Shown piece by piece: positions 855-16,650 of a stretch of 64,000 nt of DNA. The stretch lies in the IMG/VR virus record IMGVR_UViG_3300025892_002699. One strand, given 5' to 3'. Origin of the DNA: a virus. The first letter of the stretch is position 1, and every line of letters begins with the position of its first letter. The notes under the pieces were generated by a model. It saw nothing but the letters and a program-made list of their open reading frames with translations, was not told the DNA's origin and did no database searches. The position numbers and the translations under genes are program-made.

Positions 855-1955
855 ATGGCATTACAAATTAGACGTGGAACAGACGCAGAGCGAACTGGAA
901 TAACACCGATAGCAGGTGAATTAATATTCACAACAGATACAAAAAAATTATATGTAGGTGATGGTACTACTGTAGGTGGAAACCAAGTAGACACAACATT
1001 AGCGGCACAATATCTTGCAGTTAACAGCAACATCACTCCAGATGCCAACAACACAAGAGATTTAGGAACAAGCAGTGCAGTTTGGAGAACTGGTTTTTTC
1101 GGAACTGTAGATGCTTCACACATAGACGCTGTATCAATCAACGGTAACATTGTTAGCGGTGATTCTACTGTTATTGTTAATGTTGGTACAGGCACTGTAA
1201 CAGCAGACCTAACAGGTAATGTTACAGGTAATGTTACAGGAGATTTAACAGGTAGTTCAACAGGTAACCATAAAGGTTCAGTTCTTGCTGATGACAATTC
1301 AGTAAGAATAGACAGTGCTACAGACAGAATTACAAACGGTGTGTTAGACTTTGATGGCAGTGTTATTAATCTATTATCAGGTAACGGAATTCAAATAGGT
1401 ACAAACAGTTCAGTGGCAGGTGTTGGTTTAGAAATATACAACACAGATCACACAGTAAGAAATGCACTTAGACTTTATTCAGATGCAGGTAATTCCAACA
1501 CATTCAACTCAATAGAATCATACGCATCTAGAGGATCTGTTGTAACTCCAACTGTGAGTGTTGCAGACGATTCATTATTTGGTTATATCAATTACGGTTA
1601 TGATGGTTCAGCATATGTACAGTCTAGTTTTATTGTAGCAAACGTTGACTCTCAAGCAACAGTGGCTTCAGGTGCTGTTCCAGGAAACATTGTGATAGGA
1701 ACAACTCCAGACAATGGTGTAACAAATAATTTAATATCTATAAACAAAGACGGTAACTTAGGTGTAAACATATTAACTCCAACAGAAAAATTAGATGTTG
1801 TTGGTAACATTAAAACATCAGGCTTTGTACAGTTTGGTTCATTAACCACTACTGAAAGAAATGCTCTTACTCCAGCAAACGGTATGGTCATATACAACTC
1901 AACAGACAATAAATTTCAAGGTTACGAAAACGGCGGTTGGGCTAACCTAATATAA
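855..1955 (+). CDS. Tail fibre / virion protein with Mtd-N-like N-terminus
   Basis: N-term LQIRRGT...GELIFTTDTKKLYVGDG; TGNV repeats; GINILTPTEKLDVVGNI fibre repeat; C-term LTTTERNALTPANGMVIYNSTDNKFQGY. Confidence 0.75.
   Translation: MALQIRRGTDAERTGITPIAGELIFTTDTKKLYVGDGTTVGGNQVDTTLAAQYLAVNSNITPDANNTRDLGTSSAVWRTGFFGTVDASHIDAVSINGNIVSGDSTVIVNVGTGTVTADLTGNVTGNVTGDLTGSSTGNHKGSVLADDNSVRIDSATDRITNGVLDFDGSVINLLSGNGIQIGTNSSVAGVGLEIYNTDHTVRNALRLYSDAGNSNTFNSIESYASRGSVVTPTVSVADDSLFGYINYGYDGSAYVQSSFIVANVDSQATVASGAVPGNIVIGTTPDNGVTNNLISINKDGNLGVNILTPTEKLDVVGNIKTSGFVQFGSLTTTERNALTPANGMVIYNSTDNKFQGYENGGWANLI
1212..1271 (+). repeat. 12-bp-period coding repeat (ACAGGTAATGTT-like x5) encoding TGNV/TGDL
   Basis: acaggtaatgtt acaggtaatgtt acaggagattta acaggtagttca acaggtaaccat. 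Confidence 0.8.
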
Positions 1956-1959
1956 TCCA

Positions 1960-2550
1960 ATGATAGTCCGAATTACAGGACACACAAAAGGCATAGGCAA
2001 GTGTTTACATGATGATCTAATTGCGGAAGGTCATGACGTTGTAGGTTATTCAAGAAGCAATGGCTTTGATATAAGCACTCCAAAATCCAGACAATTAATC
2101 GTAGAAGAATCCAAACAAGCAGATGTATTCATTAATTGTGCTTGGCCCGATGGTGATTTACCAATGACAAAACCTGAACAGTTTGATGGACAAACTGAAA
2201 TGCTCAAAGCAATGATTCAAACGTGGGAAGGCAATAAAGATAAAAAAATTTTAAATTTAAGTTCTAAATCCTGCTACAACGAATCCGACACAAACGACTT
2301 TATGGAAATGTATGGCAATGCCAAAAAAGAACAAAATAAAATTGTAGAAAATCGTATCAATGTGTATGGTCCACATATTCTTAATGTTATATTAGGATGT
2401 ACAGATACACAAATCAGCGAGTACATGCAAGGCAATAAGATTGACCCTAATGAACTTTCCAAGTGGATTATTAAAATGTTACTGTGTGAAACAATGTATT
2501 TTCAAAGTGTAACAATAGATGCCACACAATTAAATTATAAACCTAAATAG
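1960..2550 (+). CDS. Short-chain dehydrogenase/reductase (SDR)
   Basis: TGHTKGIG (TGxxxGxG), FINCA, LSS, catalytic YGNAK (YxxxK). Confidence 0.75.
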   Translation: MIVRITGHTKGIGKCLHDDLIAEGHDVVGYSRSNGFDISTPKSRQLIVEESKQADVFINCAWPDGDLPMTKPEQFDGQTEMLKAMIQTWEGNKDKKILNLSSKSCYNESDTNDFMEMYGNAKKEQNKIVENRINVYGPHILNVILGCTDTQISEYMQGNKIDPNELSKWIIKMLLCETMYFQSVTIDATQLNYKPK

Positions 2551-3685
2551 ATTTTTTCTGTTTTACTTTTGAATCGTCCCAACTTTTCCAAGTCCATTCT
2601 GTAACAGCATAATCAACTTGTTCAGGTTGAAACAAATATCGAGTTGGCACTGTGTCGTGTAAATTATAACCTTCATTTACCACAGCATCTCTCAACATAA
2701 TTTGATGTAGAAAATTAGTAACAGGTTTACCTGGTACAAAATCACACCAAGGACCACATTGTAATTGTTCCATGTCTATAGTTTTAGGATCACTCCATTG
2801 TATTATTCTATGAGTGATTCCATTTATTTTCACCATGTAATGATAAAGATTATCATCTGCTGGTTCTTTTTCCCAAGTCCATCCTTTACGATCGCAAATA
2901 TCTTTTATTAGTTGCACATGGTCACTTAAAAAGAACTGAGGTTCATCAGGAGATCGTCCTATATCAGAGCCTGCTCTAATTCTATATTGCCAGGCTTTGT
3001 TGCCTAATGACTGTATTTCTTCTAACACTTCTTCCATGTGTTCTAAATTTTCTAATGTATATCCTACATAATAAACAAAGATACCTTCAGCAATACAATT
3101 CTCAATTCCTTTTAATTGTTTTTCGTGTACTTTTTTACCTTGATAAGAGTGGTGATTCATTCCAATCATAACCATTCTAGTGCCTGCTTCAGCAATTTGC
3201 TTTACCCATTTTCTGTCAGATAGTTTTACACCATTTGTCAAAATACAAACATCTTCGGGTCTATTAAGTTTTTTTAGAAGTGCTTTAATTTGTTTTATTA
3301 ATTCCGGTAAATCTTTACGCACAGTTGGTTCAGCGCCTGCCAATATCACAGCACCGGCTTCTGCTGAAAATCTATTTTCTATTTGCCATAATATTTGTTC
3401 TATTGGTTTATCTGTGGTTTTATTATCTGGTTTATGATAACAGTGCGGACAATTCAAATTACATTTGTCTGTGACTTCCACCATAATGCCTTGTGGAATA
3501 GAATATCCTGATTTATCATATGTCAAATTGTTGTAAAATTCTTTGTTGGTTTCTACAAGGTAATCACTTACACCATGTTCTGGACAAGTTTTCACAAGAT
3601 GTATACCATCTTCTTTAGTTACTCTTTCTGCTTCACAGTGCCTATAACACACATGGCACAGACTGGTTGTTTTTGTATCTTGCAT
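2543..3685 (-). CDS. Radical SAM enzyme, Tes/GDGT-MAS (MJ0619)-like, with N-terminal rubredoxin-like domain
   Basis: TSLCHVC...KTCPEHG N-terminus; EVTDKCNLNCPHC (CxxxCxxC); AGAEPTVRKDLPELIK; TNGVKL. Confidence 0.8.
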   Translation of the reverse strand: MQDTKTTSLCHVCYRHCEAERVTKEDGIHLVKTCPEHGVSDYLVETNKEFYNNLTYDKSGYSIPQGIMVEVTDKCNLNCPHCYHKPDNKTTDKPIEQILWQIENRFSAEAGAVILAGAEPTVRKDLPELIKQIKALLKKLNRPEDVCILTNGVKLSDRKWVKQIAEAGTRMVMIGMNHHSYQGKKVHEKQLKGIENCIAEGIFVYYVGYTLENLEHMEEVLEEIQSLGNKAWQYRIRAGSDIGRSPDEPQFFLSDHVQLIKDICDRKGWTWEKEPADDNLYHYMVKINGITHRIIQWSDPKTIDMEQLQCGPWCDFVPGKPVTNFLHQIMLRDAVVNEGYNLHDTVPTRYLFQPEQVDYAVTEWTWKSWDDSKVKQKKSI

Positions 3686-3689
3686 AGTA

Positions 3690-4376
3690 TTACTTATAGA
3701 TAGAAATTGCTTTGTTTATAAATGAATCAGGATACACATTCCTAAAACTCTCCAAACACAATATTTGTAACTTGTCAAATGGATATGTTTTATTTGTTTC
3801 AATGCCTAATTCTTTCATTTTGGGTAATAGTTCTTTTTGTCTTTCTTGGGATATATGACTCATATGCTCCTGAACTGTGATAGCAGGTTCGTCTTGTTTG
3901 TATGCAAAGAAATAATTGATTGTTCTCAGTTCTCCATCAATTACAAAATAACTGCTGGGATGAAGACTGTATTTGTAGATGCCAAGTTTTTTGTGTGTTT
4001 CCATTATGTATAACATCTGTTCTTGCCAATTGGGCAACACATCTTCAAATGCTTTACCATGACTCTGTTCCCAAAAATCAACTCCTTGTATTTCAAAATA
4101 TATTTTTTGATCAACAGGATCAAAACGAGTTGTACGAGGAATTAATTGTTTGTAGTCTACATCTAATGTTAATAAAAAATCCTTTTCTCGTGTGTATTTC
4201 ATTTCCATTAACTTGGGATCAACCACTTCATTGTGACCTTTATGATATTCTGAATCATTATGAAACCACATACAAAATTCCGTAGCATCTTCATTTATCA
4301 AACTAGTGTAAATTAAATTGTTTCTACACAGACCTTTGCCAGGCACATTGTTGTAATAATATTTAAAATTAGTCAT
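3690..4376 (-). CDS. Protein-kinase-fold-like protein with degenerate catalytic loop; paralogue of 9365-9991
   Basis: RE..FL, IP, then HKKLGIYKYSLHPSSYFVIDGELRTINYFF aligns with the HxDLHxxN...IDF region of small-molecule/RIO-like kinases but lacks the Asp. Confidence 0.45.
   Translation of the reverse strand: MTNFKYYYNNVPGKGLCRNNLIYTSLINEDATEFCMWFHNDSEYHKGHNEVVDPKLMEMKYTREKDFLLTLDVDYKQLIPRTTRFDPVDQKIYFEIQGVDFWEQSHGKAFEDVLPNWQEQMLYIMETHKKLGIYKYSLHPSSYFVIDGELRTINYFFAYKQDEPAITVQEHMSHISQERQKELLPKMKELGIETNKTYPFDKLQILCLESFRNVYPDSFINKAISIYK
3691..3696 (-). promoter_or_regulatory. Putative late promoter core TAAGTA
   Basis: TATAAGTA on the minus strand, 5 nt before ATG 3685. Confidence 0.45.
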
Positions 4377-4941
4377 AAGTGGGCCACGTCTTCACTTGTT
4401 TTAATTGTTTAAAATATTCATCTGCATTAACACGCCACACTGTTTGTTGTGTGCCTCTATAATTTAATTCTTTCACTTTGGTGTAAACACCTATGCTTTC
4501 TAACGTTGGAGCAACAATTGAATGCACTAGACGTTGTGTGCCTTCTGCATTTTCATTTGTTGTAACATAATAGTTTTTATTAAAGCCTGCCCACATTATT
4601 CCTGCTGGTTGGAAAAATTGTTGGGTGGTTGTTTGATGAGTTTTTATAGTTTCACGAGTACGAACCATTTGATATTCTTTTGGCAATTCATCTGTAAATG
4701 TACATATGCGACAAGCAATACGATAACTGTCAGGACCCATTTCCGGAAACGAATGTGCCGCAGTGGATCCGATCACCTTGCCATTCCACAACAACATCCA
4801 AACCTGATATCTATCTTCTTTAGATAACGAATCTACCAACATTTTTTTGGTTGAATTGTTGACAAATCCTTTTTGGTCGGCTGTATGATAAAACGTTTCA
4901 AGATTTAACTTGTCTGAATATGGTACCAATTTAAAAGCCAT
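4369..4941 (-). CDS. GNAT-fold acyltransferase-like protein
   Basis: VWMLLWNGKVIGSTAAH...YRIACRICT beta-strand pattern typical of GNATs. Confidence 0.45.
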   Translation of the reverse strand: MAFKLVPYSDKLNLETFYHTADQKGFVNNSTKKMLVDSLSKEDRYQVWMLLWNGKVIGSTAAHSFPEMGPDSYRIACRICTFTDELPKEYQMVRTRETIKTHQTTTQQFFQPAGIMWAGFNKNYYVTTNENAEGTQRLVHSIVAPTLESIGVYTKVKELNYRGTQQTVWRVNADEYFKQLKQVKTWPTYD

Positions 4942-4975: not shown

Positions 4976-4980
4976 CTTTG

Positions 4981-5787
4981 ATGATTAGAGGAATTGGCGG
5001 TCGTACATATATCAATTTAGACGAACACATAGACATAGAAGGTTTTAAACAACTGCATACAGAAATGTGTAGAGGTTTTGCTCTTGCTCGTGAATATGCC
5101 AAAGAAGGTACATGGATGTCTCCTGGTTTTGACACCAAAGACATGAGTTACACTTTGAATTGGAAACCAATTTACATGGCACTAGAAGAATACAAAGCAT
5201 TGCCAGAAGATCATCCAATTAGGAAAAATGGCGACGATATGTATTCCAATATAAAAGATTACAAGACACGTAATCAATTCACAAGATATCTTAAAGCAGT
5301 TTTAGGTGCTAACGATCCTTACATATATTATTTTTTATGGGAAGAAGGAGATTGGGATCATAGAAATACAGAAAGAAATATTACAGAAGAAGCAAAATAT
5401 TTTCCTGGTGTGGTTGCTTGGATTAAAGAATTAGTGAACACAGGTGTTATAGAAAGCATAGGCAGAGTAATATTTTTTCACTGTGAACATGATGGTAAAC
5501 CATTTGAACACAGAGATCTAGATGGTAAACACGGCGACAGTCAAGGATACACTGATCACCGTAATGAATTCATACACATAAGATACAGCACAAAAAGAGG
5601 ATTTTACATATGGGATCCTGAAGCAAAAAATAAAACTTACATCAATGCCAATGCGGCATTTTGGAATGATCAAGACTGGCATGGTGGTGATGTCAGCAAT
5701 GAACAAGAATACGGCTTACGAATTGATTGTGTGTTTACAGATAAATTTAGAAAGCAATTGGGCATAGATCATTTATCCAACTATTAA
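4981..5787 (+). CDS. 2OG-Fe(II) oxygenase / cupin-like protein
   Basis: GRVIFF...EHRD (HxD)...WHGG...LRID; ATG 4981 preferred over TTG 4978. Confidence 0.6.
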   Translation: MIRGIGGRTYINLDEHIDIEGFKQLHTEMCRGFALAREYAKEGTWMSPGFDTKDMSYTLNWKPIYMALEEYKALPEDHPIRKNGDDMYSNIKDYKTRNQFTRYLKAVLGANDPYIYYFLWEEGDWDHRNTERNITEEAKYFPGVVAWIKELVNTGVIESIGRVIFFHCEHDGKPFEHRDLDGKHGDSQGYTDHRNEFIHIRYSTKRGFYIWDPEAKNKTYINANAAFWNDQDWHGGDVSNEQEYGLRIDCVFTDKFRKQLGIDHLSNY

Positions 5788-5788
5788 A

Positions 5789-6400
5789 ATGTATCATCGA
5801 TATGTAAAAATACCTGTTGATCACAGAAAGCCTAGTTGCTTTTCATATCAGCCCTCACAGTCAGAAGTTATATTTGTTCCTAAAACAGATATTGATCAAT
5901 CAGTTATCAACTGGATTGAATCTTTTGATATAATTGTATCCAATGTGACTGAAGGTATCTATACACCTCCTAACAACGGAAAGGTTCACATACACAACGA
6001 TACAAGTACAATAACAAATGCAACAAAAATTAATTTTACATGGGGTCCTGATACCAGCACTACAAGGTGGTGGCGTGTAAAAGATGAGTCATTGTGTAAA
6101 ACAGACATCACTGACAGTTCACACATCACAGAAATAGTAAATCCAGACATTGTGGATCATTTTGATGGAAACAATCAGCATCGTGAATTAATTTGTGAAA
6201 GTGAACAGGATTGTGATATGGTGCATGAAAAGGTTATTAATCAGCCCAGTTTGATTAATGTTGGTCAACTGCATTCTACATACAATCCAGATCCCACACA
6301 TGGACGTTGGTCCTTGTGCTATTTTTTACTTAATAAAGATTATACTCATTTACAGTTTGAAAAAGCATTAAATATATTCAAGGGAGTTACATATGAATAA
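5789..6400 (+). CDS. 2OG-Fe(II) oxygenase / cupin-like protein (tandem paralogue A)
   Basis: IHND...INFTWG...PSLINVGQLHSTYN...RWSL. Confidence 0.65.
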   Translation: MYHRYVKIPVDHRKPSCFSYQPSQSEVIFVPKTDIDQSVINWIESFDIIVSNVTEGIYTPPNNGKVHIHNDTSTITNATKINFTWGPDTSTTRWWRVKDESLCKTDITDSSHITEIVNPDIVDHFDGNNQHRELICESEQDCDMVHEKVINQPSLINVGQLHSTYNPDPTHGRWSLCYFLLNKDYTHLQFEKALNIFKGVTYE

Positions 6401-7028
6401 AAACATATATCATCGTTATGTAAAATTGCCGTTTGAGCATAAGTTTCCAGATTGTTTTAAAACAAAGCCTGAAAATATGCGTGGCGAAAATTGGCATGAA
6501 TGGTGTGCTACAAGAGAGCATTGGGATGAAAGGTTTGTGGATTGGCTGAAAGAATATGGCTTGAAACCTTCAAATGTCTGTGAAGCATTTTACAATGGAC
6601 CTAATGGTGGTGGTTTACCTATGCACAATGACGCTCCAACTTTGAATAATTCATCAAACATAAATTTTACTTGGGGACCTCAAGACAGCATAGTAAGATG
6701 GTACAAAGTAAAAGATGAATCTTTAATTCAAACAGAAAGAGACAATACAGATTATCACAATGAGGTTTATTTTAAAGATGTAGATATTGACATTCCTGTG
6801 GACAAATTTTATCATGCAGAAGTTGAAGACTGTGATGTTGTGCATGAAGCAGTGATCAGTCAACCTAGTTTACTCAATGTTGGGCAATTGCATTCAACAC
6901 ATAATTTTAATACAAACGAACCACGTTGGACGTTAAGTTATCACTTGCTGACAATTGAAGACAACACACACATACAATTTGAAGATGCACTAGACTTATT
7001 CAAAGATCTAGCATACGAAAGTAATTAA
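6393..7028 (+). CDS. 2OG-Fe(II) oxygenase / cupin-like protein (tandem paralogue B)
   Basis: MHND...INFTWG...PSLLNVGQLHSTHN...RWTL; shares YHRYVK N-terminus with 5789-6400. Confidence 0.65.
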   Translation: MNKNIYHRYVKLPFEHKFPDCFKTKPENMRGENWHEWCATREHWDERFVDWLKEYGLKPSNVCEAFYNGPNGGGLPMHNDAPTLNNSSNINFTWGPQDSIVRWYKVKDESLIQTERDNTDYHNEVYFKDVDIDIPVDKFYHAEVEDCDVVHEAVISQPSLLNVGQLHSTHNFNTNEPRWTLSYHLLTIEDNTHIQFEDALDLFKDLAYESN

Positions 7029-7034
7029 TATTTT

Positions 7035-7589
7035 TTAGAAACGTCTAACATCAAGTGTAGAAATATACATTGATTCGTTAATAACATAATCAATTGTGCG
7101 TATAATATCTTGTGCAGTACATGTAGGCTCTCCACTTCGATCACCAGTTTTTTCGCCATAGTTTAATACTCTTACAAGACTAAACTTTAATTGCGAACCA
7201 AATGGAGTTTCATTTGCTATCACGTTGTGTACAGCATCTATGTGCTGTTTGTCTTTTAGGTATTGTTTGTCTATGCCTACTTGATCTAATAATTTTTTTG
7301 GAACTTTGGTTGCTAACGAACCTATTGTTATCACTTTCTGCAAAGGTGCGTCTTGAGTCCAACGTTGTTGTAACTTCATTAATAATGTGGATTGTGTAGT
7401 CCCCACGTGTGCCATGTTTAAAAATACATCTCTAGCCAACACTTCACTAACTGTGTCATTAATGCTGTCGGTGTTTGTTAAATCATATCCAGTGGCTCTG
7501 CTAATACCCAAACACTCGTGTGTTTTAGAATAATGTTCATACACATCTTTTCCCATAGGAGATGTATGTCCTGTGATTGCTATTCTCAT
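7035..7589 (-). CDS. SDR-family oxidoreductase
   Basis: IAITGHTSPMG, DVFLNMA, ITIGS, YLKDK (YxxxK); paralogue of 1960-2550. Confidence 0.65.
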   Translation of the reverse strand: MRIAITGHTSPMGKDVYEHYSKTHECLGISRATGYDLTNTDSINDTVSEVLARDVFLNMAHVGTTQSTLLMKLQQRWTQDAPLQKVITIGSLATKVPKKLLDQVGIDKQYLKDKQHIDAVHNVIANETPFGSQLKFSLVRVLNYGEKTGDRSGEPTCTAQDIIRTIDYVINESMYISTLDVRRF

Positions 7590-8164
7590 ATTACTGTAAA
7601 CCTCACAATTTGTATAAATCTGCTATCCTCTTCGAGACCTGATCCGTATTCTTCCAGTTCAAACATTATTGGATGCATTCCTCTGTAATAAAAATCTTTT
7701 TCAGCAAATATTCTTCTACCACCTTCTACTTTTTCATTTACTAATATTGCTTCACCATTCAGTTTGAAATGAAACATTTCATCAAGTATGCCAAATTTTT
7801 CATTAAAACTTTTGTAATCATCGTTGTTGGTTGTGTTTAAGTTGTAACAAAATTGAAAGTTCCAAGTATCTTCTTCTTTGCGGTTTAATTTTATTTCAGC
7901 ATTCAATTTAATACTTTCTTCATTGGCCCAAGTCTGTGTGTTGTCTAGTATTAATGTGTTGTTATCAAGCAGATCAATATCAACTGTACGTTTGATAAAA
8001 CCGTTCTCGGCAGTTTCTTTGCTTGATTGTATGTCTTTAAAAATATTGTTGTTGTTCCAATACACATTTAATTCATCTTTTAGAAGACCTTCTGATACAA
8101 ATTCATTTGCATCATAACTGGATCTCAGCAATGGAAAGTAATCAAATACAAGTTTCTTTTTCAT
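7586..8164 (-). CDS. Hypothetical protein
   Basis: 192-aa ORF with 4-nt overlaps to both neighbours. Confidence 0.55.
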   Translation of the reverse strand: MKKKLVFDYFPLLRSSYDANEFVSEGLLKDELNVYWNNNNIFKDIQSSKETAENGFIKRTVDIDLLDNNTLILDNTQTWANEESIKLNAEIKLNRKEEDTWNFQFCYNLNTTNNDDYKSFNEKFGILDEMFHFKLNGEAILVNEKVEGGRRIFAEKDFYYRGMHPIMFELEEYGSGLEEDSRFIQIVRFTVI

Positions 8165-8274
8165 AATATATCAAATGTTCCTAATATCATACAAACTAAT
8201 ACATAACCTAGGTAGCCTAATAGTAGATAGCCAACAATTCTTTCAGGCCAACTAAAAATATTCTTTTGTTTCAT
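8161..8274 (-). CDS. Small membrane peptide (37 aa)
   Basis: MKQKNIFSWPERIVGYLLLGYLGYVLVCMILGTFDIL; ATG right after the upstream stop at 8276 (the track's longer start overlaps the upstream gene). Confidence 0.45.
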   Translation of the reverse strand: MKQKNIFSWPERIVGYLLLGYLGYVLVCMILGTFDIL

Positions 8275-8275
8275 T

Positions 8276-8830
8276 TTATCTTTTAGTTCCAAAGAAGTTG
8301 AAGATGTATTTGGGTCTTTGTCCGCAGTTGGATCCGGCGTGCCAAGCATTTCTATCTGGCCATTTGTACACATCACCTGCTTTGGCATTGTAATACAAAT
8401 CATCTTCCACAATTAATACGTGTCCAGGGTGTGTATCTTCCATGTGTACATGAAATCTTTCTATGTTGTTTAATTTACATAGTTCTTCTTCGTTGTCCTG
8501 TGTGTCCCAGTGCCAAGGAGCATGATTTCCTTGATGCACAACACTAACCCAACAACTTAAAACATTAACTCCAACGTAATCTGCAAATTTGTCTACAACA
8601 CTTCTGTCAAAATTAGTTTCAGGTATACACATATCCCAACCAATTGTGCCGCCTTCCGATGCCAGTGTGTATCCTGCCTTGTCCCAAGACTCACTGATCT
8701 CTTTTATACCTGGAAGGTCATCTTGCTTGGTGTGTCTTGGTCCTTGATATGCTGGTTTAGAATTTTTTATGGATTCAACAACTGCATTCCAGTCTATAAC
8801 ATCACTACAATTTCCTACGTATTGTTTCAT
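8276..8830 (-). CDS. Asp/Asn beta-hydroxylase-like 2OG-Fe(II) oxygenase
   Basis: APWHWD (HxD), RFHV, WHAGSNCG..PKY. Confidence 0.7.
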   Translation of the reverse strand: MKQYVGNCSDVIDWNAVVESIKNSKPAYQGPRHTKQDDLPGIKEISESWDKAGYTLASEGGTIGWDMCIPETNFDRSVVDKFADYVGVNVLSCWVSVVHQGNHAPWHWDTQDNEEELCKLNNIERFHVHMEDTHPGHVLIVEDDLYYNAKAGDVYKWPDRNAWHAGSNCGQRPKYIFNFFGTKR

Positions 8831-9372
8831 TCTGCGTATGCTAGATAGTTAAAATTAAATTTAGGTACAAGTCCACAATTAGTGCCGCCATGATATGATT
8901 GAAAGTCGGGCCACTTGTGAACATCTCCTTGTTTTTGATTGTACAATGCTTCATCGCCTACTATGAACACATGTCCGGGTGCAGGTTCATTAATCATTGC
9001 TGTGAATCTTACAGGATTGCCTTGCTCTGTGTATTTTTTCCAATCAACGTCCCAATCCCAATGCCATGGAGCAGTTTTACCTGGATATATTTTAGATATC
9101 CAACTCTTGATCATTCTTGGAGCACCAACAAATTCACCAAACTTCTCAGCCACCTCCATTGAAAACTCATTGCCTGGATAATAGTTGATCCATTCTATAG
9201 ATTCTCTGTTGTAACTGCCTATAGTAGATAATGCATCATCAATCTCTTTTAATTCCGGTACATCTTTAACTGGAAGATATTTACAAGCAAGTTTACCTTC
9301 TTGATCCTGCACTTCTTTGATTATTGCATTCCAATCTAATATATCGTTACAGTTGCCTACAAATTCAAGCAT
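8827..9372 (-). CDS. Asp/Asn beta-hydroxylase-like 2OG-Fe(II) oxygenase (tandem paralogue)
   Basis: APWHWD, PGHVFIV, YHGGTNCG..PKF; shares VGNC.D..DWNA with 8276-8830. Confidence 0.7.
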   Translation of the reverse strand: MLEFVGNCNDILDWNAIIKEVQDQEGKLACKYLPVKDVPELKEIDDALSTIGSYNRESIEWINYYPGNEFSMEVAEKFGEFVGAPRMIKSWISKIYPGKTAPWHWDWDVDWKKYTEQGNPVRFTAMINEPAPGHVFIVGDEALYNQKQGDVHKWPDFQSYHGGTNCGLVPKFNFNYLAYAE

Positions 9373-9991
9373 TTAAAAAGTCTCCTGGCCACTCTGCATA
9401 ATTGGTTCTAATAGTTTCTTTGTACAATTCGTGAGTGTCTAATTGGTTGTTCATTATAAATTTATCAAATCTATCTGTTCTTATCAATGGTTTTAGATAT
9501 TTTATGTCAAGATATCTGTTGTCATTGTCTGTGCAACCATATAAATCCATACAGTGTGCTTCATTGTTATCATCAAAGTAAAAAGTATGAGGGTACATGT
9601 TAATTTTGTATATGTTTTGCTGTTCTAAATCTTGTTTTATTTGTTTAATTTTTTCTTTCCAATTGGGTATGTTGTCTATCTGATTGGTTTCAATCAAAAC
9701 ATTAAGATTTTTATTGTACCATTTGAATTTAATTTCTCTTTTAGCATAATCAATATCTAATAATTCTGGAATATATTTTGTGTCTTTTAATTTTGAAAGA
9801 TATACCACTTCTTGATCAAACCAGAAGTTGTATAATTCTTCATTCATAGATTCATTCTCAAAATAGTCGTTTGGATTCCAATTCATACAGAACACAGTGT
9901 TGTCTTCGCTGACAAGCGGTTGGTAAAGCATATTCGCCACAGCGAGTCCTTGTTTATGTTTATAAAAATGCTTCCAATTAGGCATACACAA
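9365..9991 (-). CDS. Protein-kinase-fold-like protein with degenerate catalytic loop
   Basis: QEVVYL..YIPELL; LEQQNIYKINMYPHTFYFD...CMDLYG; paralogue of 3690-4376. Confidence 0.45.
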   Translation of the reverse strand: MCMPNWKHFYKHKQGLAVANMLYQPLVSEDNTVFCMNWNPNDYFENESMNEELYNFWFDQEVVYLSKLKDTKYIPELLDIDYAKREIKFKWYNKNLNVLIETNQIDNIPNWKEKIKQIKQDLEQQNIYKINMYPHTFYFDDNNEAHCMDLYGCTDNDNRYLDIKYLKPLIRTDRFDKFIMNNQLDTHELYKETIRTNYAEWPGDFLNA

Positions 9992-10655
9992 TATCTATTT
10001 TAAATCCACAAATTTGTTGCATCTTTAAAAGTTCATTTATTTTTGATCCATCACACAAAAATTTAATTGTGTGTTCATTAATTCTAGCAAAGGCATCTAT
10101 TGATTGTTCTTTTGCTAATCTGTTGAGCAGTATTGAAAAAGAACTGTCAAAAAGATATCTTAAATTGTACACAGGATCGGTTGATGTCATAACAACCTGT
10201 CTTGGATCATTCATCATACGGTTACTTTGCAATCTCTTGCGTATTACCAATTGATATCTGTTCTTGTATCCATAATTAGACGCTGAATGAAGCATTCCTG
10301 CGTTCATCAAGTACACTGTGTTGTCTGGTTTACTAGAATACATTGTTTCATTTTCAATATCATGAAGAAAACTTTGTTCTGCATCTAGTGTGACATGATA
10401 TCTGTCATCTACATCAGCATGAACCGAATAACTTTTGCCGGGTGCCATTACAATTACTCTTGCTTCACCGTGATCTGGCAACTGTTTCAATAAATCTTCA
10501 ATGGCAGTGCCTTTATATTCTGGTAACACCTCCCAAGGATCATAAAAAAAGTCTCCTGTAGGTTTGTTCAAAGTATTTTTACCTTCTGGTAAATGCTTTA
10601 CTAAATCAAATAATATTTTGGAATTGGTTTTGGTATCTAATTTTTTTAACATCAT
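9978..10655 (-). CDS. Asp/Asn beta-hydroxylase-like 2OG-Fe(II) oxygenase with C-terminal extension
   Basis: ARVIVMAPGKSYSVHADVDDRYH...HSASN...RYQLV. Confidence 0.7.
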   Translation of the reverse strand: MMLKKLDTKTNSKILFDLVKHLPEGKNTLNKPTGDFFYDPWEVLPEYKGTAIEDLLKQLPDHGEARVIVMAPGKSYSVHADVDDRYHVTLDAEQSFLHDIENETMYSSKPDNTVYLMNAGMLHSASNYGYKNRYQLVIRKRLQSNRMMNDPRQVVMTSTDPVYNLRYLFDSSFSILLNRLAKEQSIDAFARINEHTIKFLCDGSKINELLKMQQICGFKIDIVYA

Positions 10656-10658
10656 TTG

Positions 10659-10702
10659 TACTTATCGTAAATTATAATGTGCGTAGTTAATAGCGATAAA
10701 TA
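10659..10702. promoter_or_regulatory. Divergent control region: TAAGTA (-, 10659-10664), 18-bp quasi-palindrome ATAATGTGCGTAGTTAAT (10674-10691), TAAATA (+, 10697-10702)
   Basis: Read directly from the sequence; the 18-mer recurs at 50973, 56873 and 63466. Confidence 0.55.
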
Positions 10703-10715
10703 GAAATGTCCATAT

Positions 10716-11522
10716 ATGTCCAATTTAGAAAATATAAGATCTCTATACCAATCTAGTGCCTATCATGATATCCTTCATGATGTAAATGGAGTAATATTTC
10801 CTTTCAATCCTGAATGGAAAAATATTGGTATCAGTGTGAGCGGTGGTGCAGACAGTGCCTTAATGAGTGTGCTGTTGTGCAGTATTATATCTCAATTGAA
10901 ATCTAACACCAATGTACACATCATAACCAATATAAGATGTTGGAAAACCAGACCTTGGCAAAAACAAAACAGTTTGAATGTGTTCAATTGGATTACTAAT
11001 TCTTTTCCTAACATACAATTTAAAAGACATGAAAATTTTATTGCTCCTGATTTAGAATGGGGATCAATAGGACCTAACATACAGGATGAATATGGCAAAT
11101 TAAAAAGCGGAAATCAAATAGAATTAAGAGCACACGCAGAATATGTGGCTCATACAGAAAATTTAGATGCTTGGTACTGTGGTGTGACCAAGAATCCAGA
11201 CAAAGAATTTGATGGTCGTCTATTGGATCGAGACATCGAAGATGTTACATTAGACAGACTGATCAAAACACACATGGGCGGCTTGGCTTGTCACCCTTTC
11301 ACACACGTTCAAAAAGATTGGATAGTTGCTCAATATAAAAAATTAGGCATAATGGACCTATTTGATCTTACAAGAAGTTGTGAAGGTGATAATCAGACAT
11401 ATCCTGAAATCTTTGGAGACTTAGATTACAAGACATATGTTTCAGGGTCGCCTGTGCCAGTGTGTGGTAAATGTTTTTGGTGTAAAGAACGAGAATGGGG
11501 AGTTAGCAAATGTCAAGACTGA
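10716..11522 (+). CDS. QueC-like PP-loop ATPase (adenine nucleotide alpha-hydrolase family)
   Basis: ISVSGGADSA PP-loop; TRSC...CGKCFWCKER zinc-binding C-terminus as in QueC. Confidence 0.7.
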   Translation: MSNLENIRSLYQSSAYHDILHDVNGVIFPFNPEWKNIGISVSGGADSALMSVLLCSIISQLKSNTNVHIITNIRCWKTRPWQKQNSLNVFNWITNSFPNIQFKRHENFIAPDLEWGSIGPNIQDEYGKLKSGNQIELRAHAEYVAHTENLDAWYCGVTKNPDKEFDGRLLDRDIEDVTLDRLIKTHMGGLACHPFTHVQKDWIVAQYKKLGIMDLFDLTRSCEGDNQTYPEIFGDLDYKTYVSGSPVPVCGKCFWCKEREWGVSKCQD

Positions 11523-12127
11523 TAACTTTTGGTTGTTCGTATGCTTATGGCACAGGATTACCTGACTGTAACAATTGGATGTTTGATAAACTGCATAATC
11601 TAAAACCCAGCAAATTAGGATGGGCAAGTTTATTGGCTAACAAAATGAAAGTTGAATGTGTGAACGAATCTTTTCCAGGATCAAGCAACACAGAAATACT
11701 GTACAATGTTTTAAAATTTGATTACAAACCTAATGACACTGTGGTTGTTATGTGGACACACTTTGTGAGAGACATGCTGTTTAATTTTCCTCATAAATTT
11801 CCTTTCTTTAGAGATAGATTAGGTCCTTGGGCAAAAACAAATCAAGAACGCAAATGGGCAGAGTATTTGAGTGAAAAAGATTATGCAATGAAAAGTTGGT
11901 TCAATATACAACATGCAGATTTACATCTACAAAAACAAGGTGTAAATTATATTCATTATCCTGCGACACCTGAAGAATTAAATAAAAACAAATTAGAATT
12001 TATACAAGTAGAAAACTATCATAGCGATGGTATCGTGTACTTGGACACAGCAACAGACGATATGCACCCTGGAGAAAAAACAAATCAACTGTTGTGCGAA
12101 TCAATATATAGGAGATTACATGACTGA
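11510..12127 (+). CDS. SGNH/GDSL hydrolase-like protein
   Basis: FGCSYAYG (block I), PGSSN (block II), DDMHPG (DxxH, block V). Confidence 0.7.
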   Translation: MSRLITFGCSYAYGTGLPDCNNWMFDKLHNLKPSKLGWASLLANKMKVECVNESFPGSSNTEILYNVLKFDYKPNDTVVVMWTHFVRDMLFNFPHKFPFFRDRLGPWAKTNQERKWAEYLSEKDYAMKSWFNIQHADLHLQKQGVNYIHYPATPEELNKNKLEFIQVENYHSDGIVYLDTATDDMHPGEKTNQLLCESIYRRLHD

Positions 12128-13538
12128 TAGCAACGAGTATTGGCAAAATCCTAAAGACACCCAGTTGGGTAAATGGCAAAAAGAACTTGAATCTGTATCA
12201 GGCAGTTCTACGTTTTGTATTCTACCATGGATACATTTTGCTACCAGACCCAATGGAGATATGAGATTGTGTTGCTCAGCAAACGCCAGCGGTGCTGGTA
12301 CCGACCACGAAGTGGGACTGGTTAAAAAGGAAGATGGCACTCCTGCAAACTTTGGCAAGGACACTCCTATGGAAGCATGGAACAACGATTACATGAAATC
12401 AGTGCGTACAACTATGATGAATGGCAAAGTACCTGCCAGTTGTAGCAAATGTTTTCAAGAAGAAAAAGTAGGTGTTGTGAGTAAACGTATATGGGAAACT
12501 GGTACGTGGTACAAAGATGGAGTTGATATACCCGAGTTACTGCGTCAAACTAAAGAAGATGGCACAGTGCCTGAACAATTAATGTATCTGGATCTAAGAC
12601 TTGGACACACTTGTAATATCAAATGTGTGATGTGTTCTCCGCATGACAGTTCAAAATGGGTTAAGGATTGGCAACAGTTGATGCCTCAATTAAAAGATAA
12701 AACTGTAAAAGATCAATTACAATGGAATAAAAAAGAATTCAATAACAAATGGCATGAAAAAGATACGTTCTGGCAAGAGATGTACGCACAGATTCCTAAT
12801 CTTAAACAGGTTTATTTTGCAGGCGGTGAGCCTTTAATGATTAAAGAACACAAACAGTTTATTGAAGAAATTATCAGACAAGGCTATCAAGATAAAATAT
12901 TGTTGCGTTACAACTCTAATGGCTTGTTAGTGGATGAAGATTTAATCCAATTGTGGAGCAAGTTTAGAAAAGTTAAATTTGCTGTCAGCATGGATGCCAT
13001 GGGCAAACGTGATGAGTACATACGTTTTCCTACAAATTTTGATACAGTGGAAAAAACTTTACACATGCTGGATAACACGCCAGACAATATTCAAACCAGT
13101 TTAGCCACAGCAATACAAATTTTCAACATCAAACACTTGCCCGACTTTATGAAATGGAAAGTGCAAAGTGGTTTTAAAAAGTTAAATGAAGGCACTGTGC
13201 CTGGTGGAGTACAAATGGGAGGTGGATTAGTGAACATGCACCTATTGTATATTCCAACATTCTTAAGCATACAGATATTGCCTAAAGAAGACAAACAAGA
13301 AGTTGAAGAAAGATTTATGGACTTTAAAGACTGGCTATGGAAAAATTATAGACAAGATGATGAGTATTGGAAACACAATCCTTATGGTTGGCGTCGTTGG
13401 GAGGCTGTGTTAAAACATATGAATCAAAATGATCACAGTAATCTACTTCCAGGATTCAAAGAATATGTTACAAAATTAGATGCCATAAGAGGCATAGATG
13501 CAAAATCTATATTTCCTGAATTGGAGCATTTATTATGA
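12120..13538 (+). CDS. Radical SAM enzyme with N-terminal SPASM/twitch-like domain
   Basis: FCILPW..RLCC...CSKC N-terminus; GHTCNIKCVMC; FAGGEPL; NSNG; start reassigned to ATG 12120 after a GGAG RBS. Confidence 0.85.
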   Translation: MTDSNEYWQNPKDTQLGKWQKELESVSGSSTFCILPWIHFATRPNGDMRLCCSANASGAGTDHEVGLVKKEDGTPANFGKDTPMEAWNNDYMKSVRTTMMNGKVPASCSKCFQEEKVGVVSKRIWETGTWYKDGVDIPELLRQTKEDGTVPEQLMYLDLRLGHTCNIKCVMCSPHDSSKWVKDWQQLMPQLKDKTVKDQLQWNKKEFNNKWHEKDTFWQEMYAQIPNLKQVYFAGGEPLMIKEHKQFIEEIIRQGYQDKILLRYNSNGLLVDEDLIQLWSKFRKVKFAVSMDAMGKRDEYIRFPTNFDTVEKTLHMLDNTPDNIQTSLATAIQIFNIKHLPDFMKWKVQSGFKKLNEGTVPGGVQMGGGLVNMHLLYIPTFLSIQILPKEDKQEVEERFMDFKDWLWKNYRQDDEYWKHNPYGWRRWEAVLKHMNQNDHSNLLPGFKEYVTKLDAIRGIDAKSIFPELEHLL

Positions 13539-14497
13539 ACGTAGTACAAGTATGGAATCCCCAACCTAAAGAAGTGTTGCGTATAGAATTTATGATCGGT
13601 AACACTTGTAATTTTTCTTGTTGGTACTGTTTCGAAGGTTCACATGAAGGCACTCACAGATGGACAGATGACATGGATCAATTGGTGCTAAATTTTAAAC
13701 ATCTATTTCAAAAATACAGAGCAGTAGGCAAAACAAAACTGGAACTGCACATTGTGGGAGGAGAACCTACATTGTGGCCTAGACTAGGTGAGTTTGTAAC
13801 AGAAATCAGAAAAGAAATACCTTCATACATCACAATCAGTTCCAATGGTAGTAGAACTGTGAGATGGTGGCGCAAGTATGGTGAAGTGTTTGACAAAATT
13901 TTATTGAGTGCTCATTGGAAACAATGTGACGTGCCACATTTTATTGAAGTGGCAGACACACTGCATGAACTGGATAGAAGTCCTAACGCAATGGTTTTGA
14001 TGGATCCAACTCAATGGGACGTGTGTTTAGGCTTGATTGATAAATTTAAAAAAAGTAAACATGATTGGTTTATAAGTGCTATGGAAGTGATGCATCGCAC
14101 AATCACTTACACCGACGAACAAAAAGCATTCGTCGCCAAACCCACAAAAAGAAGACCTAGTCTATGGCATTTATGGACACACAGAAAACATTTAAAAAGT
14201 GAACCCACTATTAAGTTTGAAGATGGATCAAAGAAACAGGTTAATCGCAATTGGCTTGTATTGAACAAGCAAAATGACTTCCGAGGTTGGATGTGTAATA
14301 TAGGAGTAGACAGCATGATGATTGATCCTGCTGGTCTGATAACAAGTGCTTGTAGAACTAGTCTGTTTGAAGATTACAACATATATGATCCAGACTTTGT
14401 GACAAAATTTAATCCTGATATCAAACCAAAAATTTGTGACAAACGCAACACTTGTATGTGTCAGCCTGAAAGTTTATTGGATAAAGTTAAACTTTAG
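13535..14497 (+). CDS. Radical SAM enzyme with C-terminal Cys-rich (SPASM/twitch-like) domain
   Basis: GNTCNFSCWYC; GGEPTL; SSNGSR; GWMCNIG...AC...C....CMC. Confidence 0.85.
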   Translation: MNVVQVWNPQPKEVLRIEFMIGNTCNFSCWYCFEGSHEGTHRWTDDMDQLVLNFKHLFQKYRAVGKTKLELHIVGGEPTLWPRLGEFVTEIRKEIPSYITISSNGSRTVRWWRKYGEVFDKILLSAHWKQCDVPHFIEVADTLHELDRSPNAMVLMDPTQWDVCLGLIDKFKKSKHDWFISAMEVMHRTITYTDEQKAFVAKPTKRRPSLWHLWTHRKHLKSEPTIKFEDGSKKQVNRNWLVLNKQNDFRGWMCNIGVDSMMIDPAGLITSACRTSLFEDYNIYDPDFVTKFNPDIKPKICDKRNTCMCQPESLLDKVKL

Positions 14498-15383
14498 ATT
14501 TTGTAATATTAATATCTGCGGCACATGTACACCATTCACGTGTACAGTCAATTGATTCAGTAGGTTGAACAAACGTACCTTCATAGATATTTCCGATAGG
14601 TCCTCCCACTCTACAAGTGGCTCTATGCACTTCTCCGTCCCAATTGATCATTAAACTTTCCAATCCTGCATTGCATTTCCAGCCTTTGAATTGATTTGTT
14701 TTTTCAATCAGCAAGTCGTTTGTGTTGCAAGATTCTGTTTCGTCTATCAATGTGTTGTGTGGGGGATTATGATTTTGTGCCACCAAAAAATCTTTTTCTT
14801 CTGCAGAGTAACGTTCCATATCTTCAAAAATATCATGCGTTTCTGTCCAACGAATTGGACGTAGAGCATAGTTTATTCCTGCTTCTTTTAGGCGTCTACA
14901 AGCGTCAGAGACGTCATCTAACTGCCCTGGTAACATCATTACGTGTGCTAGTATATTTTTATTTTTTGTTTGTTGTGCGACGTTTAAAACGGTTTCTATC
15001 ACCTTTTGGTAGTCGTATTCGAAGTGTATAGAGAACACAATATGGTTTATCAGTCTATCCAAAATATCTATGTAGAACTCTGCAGTTCTTGTTCCGTTTG
15101 TGGTCACATTTAACCAAGACACTTTTGGTTTAGCATACTCCAATAGTTCTAAAATTTTTGGATGCACACAAGGTTCTCCACCTGTAAAACTGATTCGCAT
15201 GTTGTTGATTTTGGAAAGTTCATCCACAGCATTTTTTAAAATGTCAATGTCTGTGTGAGGACTTGTATTGTCATGTATCACTGCTGGACAATAAGAACAA
15301 TCGTAATTGCATCTTTTTCCAAGATTCCATTCAACTTTTACACTCTGTTGTATGTGAGGATATAGATGTTCAACTTTAAACAT
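14487..15383 (-). CDS. Radical SAM enzyme with C-terminal Cys-rich domain
   Basis: GKRCNYDCSYC; TGGEP; TTNGTR; GWKCNAG...TC...CTREWCTC. Confidence 0.85.
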   Translation of the reverse strand: MFKVEHLYPHIQQSVKVEWNLGKRCNYDCSYCPAVIHDNTSPHTDIDILKNAVDELSKINNMRISFTGGEPCVHPKILELLEYAKPKVSWLNVTTNGTRTAEFYIDILDRLINHIVFSIHFEYDYQKVIETVLNVAQQTKNKNILAHVMMLPGQLDDVSDACRRLKEAGINYALRPIRWTETHDIFEDMERYSAEEKDFLVAQNHNPPHNTLIDETESCNTNDLLIEKTNQFKGWKCNAGLESLMINWDGEVHRATCRVGGPIGNIYEGTFVQPTESIDCTREWCTCAADINITKSKV

Positions 15384-16650
15384 AATCTTGAAACTCCGGA
15401 TTTATTTTTTCAAACGGTCCTTGGTTTCTTGTTAGATCAAGTTTTCTGTTAAAGTCTACGCAATCTTGCCAATATTGATTAAGGTCTTTTGCTTGTAAAA
15501 AATTAATGTTATCTTGTATTTGTTGTTGTGTAATTTTTTCCAATACTGGGTGTTGTTTTACTATTTCATAATCTTTAATCTTAGGTTTCATTGCCTCTAA
15601 TTTTGCTACCACTTGATCTTTTAATGCTTTGGGTAGAACCTGTGCCGATAATGCTCTAGGATAATTTACTCTGTGACTGTAAAACACAATCTTCATATCA
15701 TTTAAAAAATAGTCAATCACTTTGTCTATTTGTAGAATATTGTTTGCTTGTACAGTAAAAGCACCCACGATTCGACTGACTGTTGGAATCTTTTTCATTT
15801 CTTTAATATTGTATTCAACATCCGAAAACTTTCCATTACCTCGAATGTATTCATATATGTCATGCAATCCGTCTATGCTTACATTGACAGCAACACTTTT
15901 AAACTTGGGCCAATAGTCATGCACTGTTCTTCCGCCTTTGATTCCTAATTTAGTGCCGTTGGTTGCATATTTTATTTCAATGTTATCTCCATTCTTGGAT
16001 AACAAATCTAATATTTTATAATGCACAGGATCCATTAACGGTTCTCCACCTGCAAATTCTACACGTCTAAAGTAAGGTAAAAGTTTTTCAAGGTTTTCCC
16101 AAAAATGATCTTTATCTTCAAATATTCCTACATAAGGTGCTTTCGTTAATCCTAAATTTTCAACAGCGTCTACTAGATAGTTTCCTTCTTTTTTGTAATG
16201 ATCAACAATAGACGTCCAATCTTTCCATTGAGTAGAATCTAAAGGATTACACATTCTACATTTTAAATTGCATAAGTTATTAATTTTAATTTCTATTGTG
16301 GGCAATTCAAACGGCATTGAATAATCATCGTTAAGTTTGTCTAATGCATTTGGGTATAAATTAATTCTAGATTCCGGAGATGAATCAGTAATATGTCTTT
16401 GACGCAGACTTTGTACTCCTTGATCTTCTAAATCAAAACAAGGTTCACACACATCTGGACGTTCATCGTTTAACACTTGACGTCTTACATCTTTCATTTT
16501 GTCAGAGTTCCATGCTTCTTCCAGACTCATGTCTTTTATATTGCCTATAGGAAGACTACGACAGCAAACTTTAATTGCTCCGTCTTCTCTAGTAGCCAAT
16601 CCTGTGAAAGGATGCATACAAAAAGTACAACTGTTTTTATTTTTCTTCAT
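15376..16650 (-). CDS. Radical SAM enzyme with N-terminal SPASM/twitch-like domain
   Basis: FCMHPF..KVCC...CEPC; NNLCNLKCRMC; FAGGEPL; ATNG; start likely ATG 16650. Confidence 0.85.
   Translation of the reverse strand: MKKNKNSCTFCMHPFTGLATREDGAIKVCCRSLPIGNIKDMSLEEAWNSDKMKDVRRQVLNDERPDVCEPCFDLEDQGVQSLRQRHITDSSPESRINLYPNALDKLNDDYSMPFELPTIEIKINNLCNLKCRMCNPLDSTQWKDWTSIVDHYKKEGNYLVDAVENLGLTKAPYVGIFEDKDHFWENLEKLLPYFRRVEFAGGEPLMDPVHYKILDLLSKNGDNIEIKYATNGTKLGIKGGRTVHDYWPKFKSVAVNVSIDGLHDIYEYIRGNGKFSDVEYNIKEMKKIPTVSRIVGAFTVQANNILQIDKVIDYFLNDMKIVFYSHRVNYPRALSAQVLPKALKDQVVAKLEAMKPKIKDYEIVKQHPVLEKITQQQIQDNINFLQAKDLNQYWQDCVDFNRKLDLTRNQGPFEKINPEFQDYV

Follow-up and report, generated by a model that had tools for sequence, protein, structure and literature searches.

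A short Tes-like radical SAM enzyme of uncultured phages lacks the auxiliary clusters of tetraether-lipid synthase and is paired with a GNAT-fold partner

A gene on the minus strand (positions 2543-3685) of a 64,000-nucleotide stretch of viral DNA (IMG/VR record IMGVR_UViG_3300025892_002699; the whole stretch is called the window below) encodes a 380-amino-acid (aa) radical S-adenosylmethionine (SAM) enzyme related to the tetraether-lipid synthase Tes, also designated GDGT-MAS. The window is part of the genome of an uncultured, marine jumbo myophage of the T4 superfamily. On balance, the gene probably encodes an offshoot of the Tes/zinc-ribbon radical SAM lineage that is devoid of auxiliary clusters, belongs to a family found here in phages only, and performs single-radical chemistry coupled to a GNAT-fold protein. 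Judged by its model score and its residues, the 380-aa enzyme is not a Tes, and it very probably carries out radical chemistry different from that of Tes; the GNAT-fold and kinase-like proteins that constantly accompany it also point to a chemistry other than that of Tes. A first-pass annotation, made from the window's letters alone, had read the gene as a viral homologue of Tes that misses one auxiliary-cluster motif and possibly catalyzes C-C or C-S coupling on lipids or another substrate.

Architecture of the Enzyme

The open reading frame (ORF) starts with an ATG codon, and its product (P0001) contains all the motifs that the first-pass annotation had quoted: TSLCHVC at residues 7-13, KTCPEHG at residues 32-38, VTDKCNLNCPHC at residues 71-82, AGAEPTVRKDLPELIK at residues 116-131, and TNGVKL at residues 150-155. 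Only the C-x19-K spacing given there needs to be amended, 18 rather than 19 residues separating C13 from K32, and the first metal site thus reads C10-x2-C13-x20-C34-x2-H37. Two Pfam families are matched far above chance level, namely PF23545 (Zn_ribbon_HMPTM, the N-terminal zinc ribbon of HMPTM/MJ0619 proteins; residues 5-44, E 1.5e-12, 47.3 bits for a cut-off of 27) and PF04055 (Radical_SAM; residues 69-223, E 1.8e-19, 71 bits for a cut-off of 29.5). An AlphaFold2 model built with 145 homologues has a mean predicted local distance difference test score (pLDDT) of 93.4 and a predicted TM-score (pTM) of 0.92. The presence of the CX3CX2C triad and of a barrel modeled at high confidence places the protein in the radical SAM superfamily.

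Conservation was assessed in an alignment of 16 family members with 46-81% identity to the enzyme of the window. Cysteines are invariant at six positions only, namely C10, C13, and C34 in the rubredoxin-like domain and C75, C79, and C82 in the radical SAM triad; H37, G117, E119, and T121 are also invariant. In the C-terminal domain, the family-invariant polar residues are R235, R237, R244, H282, Q296, W297, H327, Q328, R332, and D333. A test for a SPASM or twitch domain in the enzyme gave no PF13186 match and no conserved C-terminal Cys.

Kinship with Tes and Loss of Its Auxiliary Clusters

Among solved structures, GDGT-MAS (7TOL) is the best match of the enzyme by sequence, with an E-value of 3.4e-19, MoaA following at 1e-4. 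Structural comparisons with the enzyme model give the same order. Foldseek ranks 7TOL first (E 9.7e-18, TMq 0.69) and then MoaA (1.2e-8, TMq 0.47), and VIA-align superimposes the model onto GDGT-MAS with a Z of 29.9 and a root-mean-square deviation (rmsd) of 3.7 Å over 328 aligned residues, at 25% identity, with MoaA as the runner-up at Z 18.3. In the latter alignment residues 2-339 of the model correspond to residues 1-483 of the GDGT-MAS chain, and 170 of the 498 chain residues remain unaligned. The homology to Tes/MJ0619 claimed by the first-pass annotation is thus borne out by both sequence and fold; it is real and reaches through part of the C-terminal domain.

GDGT-MAS harbors four metal sites, i.e., a rubredoxin-like iron bound by C9-x2-C12-x20-C33-x2-H36, an N-terminal [4Fe-4S] cluster whose ligands are C73, C77, C80, and a His residue, the radical SAM cluster, and a C-terminal [4Fe-4S] cluster with a labile Met439 ligand (Lloyd et al., 2022; PMC9433317). 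The ligands of the first site are found in the phage enzyme with the same spacing. In the alignment with 7TOL, Y83 and Q182 of the enzyme face Phe106 and Arg210, two of the four GDGT-MAS residues that form hydrogen bonds with the ribose of 5'-deoxyadenosine (PMC9433317). Given an invariant triad, an invariant GGE-type motif, and the alignment of the SAM-contact positions, the retained parts of the enzyme look functional.

To delineate what has been lost, three archaeal genes that score above the NCBIfam cut-off for Tes (740, 687, and 508 bits) were aligned with the phage family. The CPxxCGxCxxH segment is cleanly deleted from the window protein as it is from all of its phage family, and the CX3CX2C motif begins at residue 75 in the enzyme vs. 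approximately residue 98 in GDGT-MAS. The first-pass annotation was therefore right that the CPxxCGLCxxH motif is missing, but it understated the loss, since the C-terminal auxiliary cluster is gone as well. In the same alignment, a C-terminal insertion of approximately 100 residues in true Tes proteins is missing from the phage proteins, and the Tes Cys columns are occupied by G312, P313, and L326 in the window enzyme. A further feature of Tes is a pair of hydrophobic lipid pockets, the second of which is made up of amphipathic helices; the missing insertion might form the latter. Lloyd et al. (2022; PMC9433317) reported Met439 and Tyr459 as fully conserved among 1000 archaeal homologues; in the alignment, the corresponding columns hold I295 and D316, respectively, the latter 20 residues downstream as in Tes. 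The Tes model NF045702 gives the enzyme 73.6 bits for a cut-off of 450.

In Tes, the radical first formed on the substrate is kept at the C-terminal cluster in the form of a C-S bond (PMC9433317). With both auxiliary clusters gone, the phage enzyme would be without the cofactor required for C-C and C-S coupling, and because Tes chemistry uses the C-S bond on the C-terminal cluster, the coupling of lipid tails appears very unlikely. The lipid coupling envisaged by the first-pass annotation is thus at odds with the absence of both auxiliary clusters and of equivalents to Met439 and Tyr459.

Distribution and Phylogeny of the Family

Relatives of the enzyme are found at 299 loci in IMG/VR, all of them on viral contigs. 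A search of an index of 5.8 billion proteins yielded 336 clusters (at 90% identity) with E-values of at most 0.001, nearly all of which are 340-385 aa long, match both PF23545 and PF04055, and are labeled "MoaA" or "hypothetical" at source. A profile search of 1.84 billion representatives retrieved 216 proteins with E-values of at most 1e-30, and these merge gradually into a larger set of zinc-ribbon radical SAM proteins of 320-430 aa that have no N-terminal cluster insertion. The radical SAM motif starts at approximately residue 70-80 in nearly all of the short relatives, and no relatives of 666 aa or more were found. The public "MoaA" and "AslB" labels carried by this family are misannotations, both assignments being under the curated cut-offs; with MoaA models, the enzyme reaches about 50 bits for cut-offs of 231-325 (50.6 and 51.8 bits with TIGR02666 and TIGR02668, whose cut-offs are 284 and 325, respectively). 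P0003, P0005, P0039, and others are described as "molybdenum cofactor biosynthesis enzyme MoaA" or "sulfatase maturation enzyme AslB" at source.

No match to the enzyme was detected by tblastn in 50,697 GenBank phages, whereas the window's SbcC-like protein, used as a control, gave 3,210 records in the same database. The structures of BFVD yielded only generic radical SAM matches, with TMq values of at most 0.43. In a pattern-based scan of one genome per species for 185,579 prokaryote species, no full-length relative was found, and the best cellular matches were generic radical SAM cores with 22-40% identity. No paper on phage homologues of Tes was found in the literature library searched.

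In a quick maximum-likelihood tree built with IQ-TREE and rooted at midpoint, the phage family forms a clade with an SH-aLRT support of 97, and the true Tes proteins form another, with a support of 98, apart from the first. Forms of approximately 400 aa that have some C-terminal Cys residues branch outside the short forms. The enzyme of the window lies in the clade of the phage family.

Several divergent lineages have two or three Tes-like genes in tandem whose products are 38-43% identical to the window protein (L195:5571-10180, L193:7998-10100, L068, L071, L073, and L076-L078), which suggests a division of labor among paralogues. P0138 (546 aa), a close family member, has a C-terminal extension of approximately 200 residues, for which no Pfam match and no similarity to the GNAT-fold or kinase-like partner was found; a member of its cluster, P0285, is present on 11 contigs.

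Partner Genes and GNAT Fusions

The association of the enzyme gene with its neighbors was investigated by comparing the window proteins, by tblastn, with 79 IMG/VR loci, 55 of which have at least 3 kb of flanking sequence on each side and were kept for the counts. A gene for the 228-aa kinase-like protein is found at most 3 kb away from the enzyme gene in all 55 loci, that for the 190-aa GNAT-fold protein in 53, and that for the 269-aa protein in 48, and the association persists where the enzyme is only 44-50% identical to that of the window. Homologues of the Mtd_N fiber gene are within the same distance in 28 of the 55 loci and anywhere in the locus in 57 of the 79. The gene for a short SDR-like protein, next to the enzyme gene in the window, is that close in only 13 of the 55 loci, and it is therefore not a core partner. 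On the minus strand the GNAT-fold gene comes first, followed by the kinase-like gene after an 8-base overlap and, after a 4-base gap, by the enzyme gene, which is the last of the run. The three partners, like the enzyme, gave no tblastn match in the 50,697 GenBank phages.

The GNAT-fold partner was modeled with a pLDDT of 90.9. Its closest fold is that of PA3270 (Z 12.7, rmsd 3.1 Å over 156 residues), and AAC(6')-Ib, TacT/AtaT, and FdhC follow at Z values of approximately 10; a profile search of the PDB gave nothing. Weak Pfam matches to FeeM (PF21926) were detected for 7 of 20 members, with 0.0096 as the best E-value. The identification of this partner as a FeeM protein was not confirmed by the fold comparisons, in which the matches are to generic GNAT proteins.

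The similarity of the kinase-like partner profile to the protein kinase TTK covers positions 60-166, and no consistent Pfam match was obtained for this protein. A paralogue, 26% identical to it, is encoded at 9365-9991. As read from the alignment, the catalytic-loop region of the pair has the sequence YKYS(L/M)HPSSY, with no Asp residue, and the two proteins may bind rather than transfer phosphate. The 269-aa partner has a mean column identity of 71% over 20 homologues, which is above the conservation of the enzyme itself. No meaningful match was found for it in a profile search of the PDB; its H-x-D...H pattern indicates that it may be a cupin or an oxygenase. A lead from Atlas features that it might be AspH-like (PF05118) was not supported: the protein has no Pfam match and no hhalign similarity to the PF05118-type proteins of the window.

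In some distant relatives, which belong to sister clades, the zinc ribbon, the radical SAM core, and a C-terminal GNAT domain are found in a single chain. The Acetyltransf_1 family is matched by P0216 and P0258 with 33.2 and 31.1 bits, respectively, for a Pfam cut-off of 20.7, and weakly by P0228 and P0184. The fused forms, which lie on viral contigs, occupy two positions in the tree and keep the C-terminal motifs of the family; a tblastn search for them in the same GenBank phages gave no match. In one locus (L169), the fused gene is part of the tail module of a P22-like podophage. The gene of a gp10-like DNA-stabilization protein, 43% identical to its homologue in Rhodoferax phage P26218, and a 571-aa gene taken to code for a fiber lie upstream of it, and the genes downstream code for probable internal virion proteins. 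The other genes that surround the enzyme gene in the window are absent from the vicinity of the fused gene in the podophage relatives. Since podophages carry the fused gene without them, the radical SAM enzyme and the GNAT-fold protein represent the minimal working unit, to which the jumbo-phage lineage has added the kinase-like and 269-aa proteins.

Genomic Surroundings

The phage setting assumed in the first-pass annotation is supported by the structural genes of the window and by the presence of the relatives on the 299 IMG/VR contigs. The window codes for a T4-type baseplate wedge protein (phrog_10646, E 1e-302), a baseplate hub, several tail-fiber proteins, and SbcCD-like nucleases. Among cultured phages, Sinorhizobium phage Phosso and Pseudomonas phage PA5oct have the closest relatives of the SbcC-like protein, with 46-48% identity. 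Between tail-fiber-like genes and the baseplate wedge gene lies a 4,891-aa ORF (32773-47448, minus strand), which presumably encodes a giant fiber or structural protein.

The coordinates of the main features are collected in Table 1. The enzyme gene and its partners are at one end of an enzyme island, in which further radical SAM genes begin at 12027, 13535, 14487, 15376, 19256, and 20235 according to Pfam, making seven in the first 21 kb of the window. PF05118-type (AspH-like) proteins are encoded at 9978 and 18006, and two short SDR-like proteins in the same 21 kb. The gene set of the island recurs, in rearranged form, in loci whose enzyme is 44-50% identical to that of the window. In two of the radical SAM proteins (12027-13538 and 15376-16692) the SPASM domain, unusually, precedes the radical SAM core. 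The island genes are tightly packed, with no evident gene for a small precursor peptide.

Neither tRNA genes nor matches to Rfam families were found in the window. Both strands of the 64 kb are devoid of the T4 late-promoter word TATAAATA, for 5.6 occurrences expected from shuffled sequences; the phage either avoids it or has another late-promoter word. Counts of intergenic 8-mers revealed no shared promoter word.

Table 1. Features of the enzyme gene and of its surroundings in the window.
Feature	Position	Strand	Evidence and remarks
Fiber-like protein, 366 aa, Mtd_N	855..1955	+	PF18454, E 1.9e-12; converges on the enzyme gene, with the 1960-2550 gene in between
Short Rossmann/SDR-like protein, 196 aa	1960..2550	+	PF01370 (Epimerase), E 6.8e-7; shares its last 8 bases with the 3' end of the enzyme gene
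Enzyme gene, minimal Tes-like radical SAM	2543..3685	-	Pfam PF23545 and PF04055; model pLDDT 93.4; top fold match GDGT-MAS, Z 29.9
C-terminal domain, residues 230-345, without cluster ligands	2651..2998	-	Shares homology with part of the C-terminal domain of Tes
Radical SAM core, residues 69-223	3017..3481	-	PF04055; CX3CX2C = C75, C79, C82 at nt 3440-3463; GAEPT (GGE-type) = residues 117-121
N-terminal rubredoxin-like/zinc-ribbon domain, residues 5-44	3554..3673	-	PF23545; ligands C10, C13, C34, H37
Kinase-fold-like partner, 228 aa, second in operon	3690..4376	-	Profile of 22 homologues matches TTK, E 3e-5
GNAT-fold acyltransferase-like partner, 190 aa, first in operon	4369..4941	-	Model and fold search; 8-base overlap with the next gene
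Conserved 269-aa partner, divergent	4978..5787	+	Likely ATG start at 4981; H-x-D...H pattern
Remaining enzyme island	5789..21338		Pfam; six radical SAM genes, AspH-like genes, paralogous pairs without family matches

Proposed Reaction and Alternatives

In the mechanism that we propose for the cluster-less enzyme, SAM would be reduced to generate the 5'-deoxyadenosyl radical, which would take one hydrogen atom from a substrate bound in the barrel lined by the invariant Arg, His, Gln, and Asp residues. Because a second cluster is missing, the enzyme would have no source of sulfur and no means of storing a radical, which argues for a single-radical step. Its outcome might be an epimerization, a rearrangement, or an addition to or of an acyl unit, and the GNAT-fold partner would deliver an acyl-CoA-derived group to the same substrate or acylate that substrate. 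The polar nature of the invariant C-terminal residues would favor a substrate that is itself polar or anionic over a bare hydrocarbon tail. The identity of the target is the weakest step of the proposal: a virion protein, for instance of the tail fiber, or a moiety bound to such a protein is put forward tentatively, as the leading guess, because the setting in a tail module is repeated in two unrelated types of phages. More doubtful still is the specific idea that the enzyme and its GNAT partner together catalyze a radical acylation not described before, or an acyl-dependent C-C modification, of a tail-fiber or different virion protein, i.e., that an Elp3-like logic has been implemented on a Tes scaffold.

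A number of points weigh against this proposal. The proximity of fiber genes, which are within 3 kb of the enzyme gene in only 28 of the 55 loci, may just reflect the build-up of accessory genes in fiber regions, and the enzyme was found to have neither a peptide-recognition (RRE) nor a SPASM domain, such as radical SAM enzymes that modify proteins typically have. An anionic small molecule, such as a nucleotide, a CoA thioester, or a sugar phosphate, would fit the conserved arginines at least equally well, and the weak FeeM matches of the GNAT-fold partner leave room for an acyl-lipid substrate. As the cellular scan was only pattern-based, the restriction of the family to phages falls short of proof.

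The alternatives differ mostly in the nature of the substrate. The genes might form a small-molecule or sugar pathway, yielding for instance a nucleotide-sugar or a glycan destined for the virion or directed against the host, in which the kinase-like protein would phosphorylate, the GNAT-fold protein N-acylate, and the enzyme rearrange the intermediate. An anionic small molecule would fit well with the conserved Arg, His, and Asp residues, the next folds after GDGT-MAS, those of MoaA, viperin, and BlsE, all belong to proteins that handle nucleotides or nucleosides, the island has SDR/epimerase-like genes, and the nucleotide-sugar GNAT FdhC is among the fold matches of the GNAT-fold partner (Z 10.1). 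However, no glycosyltransferase, aminotransferase, or nucleotidyltransferase is identified by Pfam in the island, and the podophage relatives hold the fused enzyme alone, with none of the other island genes nearby, so that we consider this possibility rather unlikely. Slightly less probable is the tailoring of fatty acyl chains, in which the GNAT-fold partner would be an N-acyl amino acid synthase of the FeeM type that uses acyl-acyl carrier protein or acyl-CoA, and the enzyme would alter the chain of the donor or of the product. The descent of the enzyme from a lipid-modifying lineage, the weak PF21926 matches described above, and the presence of an acyl-homoserine-lactone synthase at rank 24 of the Foldseek matches of the GNAT-fold partner all agree with it, but those FeeM matches are under any significance threshold, the partner folds like the ordinary acetyltransferases PA3270 (Z 12.7), AAC(6')-Ib, and TacT/AtaT, with FeeM outside the best 50 matches, and the invariant residues of the enzyme's C-terminal domain are polar and charged.

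An Elp3-like reaction, in which the GNAT part would bind acetyl-CoA and the radical SAM part would convert the acetyl methyl group to a carbon radical that adds to a base of tRNA or of phage DNA, would account for the domain order that the phage fusions share with Elp3 and for the occurrence of tRNA-acetylating GNAT toxins among the folds of the partner, at Z values of about 10.3-10.6. It appears improbable, as Elp3 is absent both from the Foldseek matches listed for the enzyme and from its best 50 VIA matches, so that the resemblance would be an analogy rather than a kinship; moreover, the gene is located in tail modules and not with replication or nucleotide genes, and the window is without tRNA genes. 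Still less credence can be given to a streamlined Tes or Mss that would join two lipid tails by a C(sp3)-C(sp3) bond and thereby produce membrane-spanning lipids in the infected host. GDGT-MAS is by far the closest solved relative, with an identical rubredoxin spacing, but its mechanism requires the C-terminal cluster for the C-S-bound first radical, and both auxiliary clusters, the equivalents of Met439 and Tyr459, and the insertion of approximately 100 residues are missing from the phage enzyme, which scores far below the Tes cut-off and belongs to a separate clade. Finally, the fact that only two of the four metal sites known from its nearest relative are left might be taken as a sign that the protein is a decayed, non-catalytic remnant with a structural or regulatory role. 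This is scarcely credible: the 16 members show no variation in the triad, in the GGE-type motif, or at the positions that align with SAM contacts, the triad is kept in the mixed alignment with Tes, the gene is intact in 299 viral loci, and some lineages have it in two or three tandem copies.

Significance

The existence of a large family that has the Tes scaffold minus the extra clusters indicates that this scaffold supports other radical chemistry, and the obligatory pairing or fusion with a GNAT-fold protein provides a concrete handle on what that chemistry is. The family is abundant in uncultured phages and absent from every cultured phage genome searched. Its position in tail modules means that the product of the enzyme may bear on host recognition. 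If radical acylation of a virion component did take place, it would represent a new kind of post-translational modification, by which hundreds of uncultured marine and freshwater phages would tune the recognition of their hosts. The finding gives no evidence that phages make membrane-spanning lipids, the enzyme, as judged above, not being a tetraether or membrane-spanning lipid synthase.

Comparison with Known Systems

Among characterized proteins, GDGT-MAS/Tes (MJ0619; 7TOL, 7TOM; NF045702) shares with the phage enzyme the rubredoxin-like Cys-x2-Cys-x20-Cys-x2-His site with identical spacing and the core motifs VT(D/N)(K/R)CNLNCP and GxEPTVRxDLPELI. To our knowledge, it is the sole characterized member of its lineage. 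Unlike the phage enzyme, Tes, which is approximately 500 aa rather than 380 aa long, has an N-terminal [4Fe-4S] domain, ligands for a C-terminal [4Fe-4S] cluster, Met439, Tyr459, and the insertion of approximately 100 residues, whereas the phage enzyme belongs to a separate clade, is found on viral contigs only, and is paired with GNAT-fold and kinase-like genes. TrsS (NF045646), a radical SAM (seleno)protein from the same zinc-ribbon and radical SAM lineage, is the best NCBIfam match of the enzyme (101.7 bits), but the score is far under the cut-off of 490, and only core residues 67-213 match well. The best E-value to TrsS among 26 relatives is 5.7e-61. We know of no established reaction for TrsS. 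MoaA, the GTP 3',8-cyclase, has the second-best fold (Z 18.3); its C-terminal, GTP-binding [4Fe-4S] cluster has no counterpart in the phage enzyme, which is devoid of conserved C-terminal Cys residues.

The known precedent for such fusions is Elp3, the enzyme of tRNA U34 carboxymethylation, in which a GNAT-type domain comes after the radical SAM domain of the same polypeptide. It shares with the phage fusions the logic of two modules in the same order (radical SAM, then GNAT/KAT), apparently by analogy only, no specific kinship in sequence or fold having been seen among the matches listed, and unlike the phage enzyme it is without a Tes-type rubredoxin domain. A resemblance in organization is also seen in uncharacterized short zinc-ribbon radical SAM proteins of metagenomic origin (320-430 aa, including the GNAT fusions P0216 and P0258), which are 21-34% identical to the window protein. 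They are like it in domain order, in the absence of an N-terminal cluster insertion, and in the coupling to GNAT, and they share its C-terminal motifs, i.e., an R-I-R/K strand, LSD, and W-x-D..IDL. Unlike the window protein, the relatives of approximately 400 aa still have Cys residues at some of the Tes C-terminal Cys columns, and the fused forms come from small P22-like phages and are not accompanied by the kinase-like and 269-aa partners that the enzyme has in jumbo phages.

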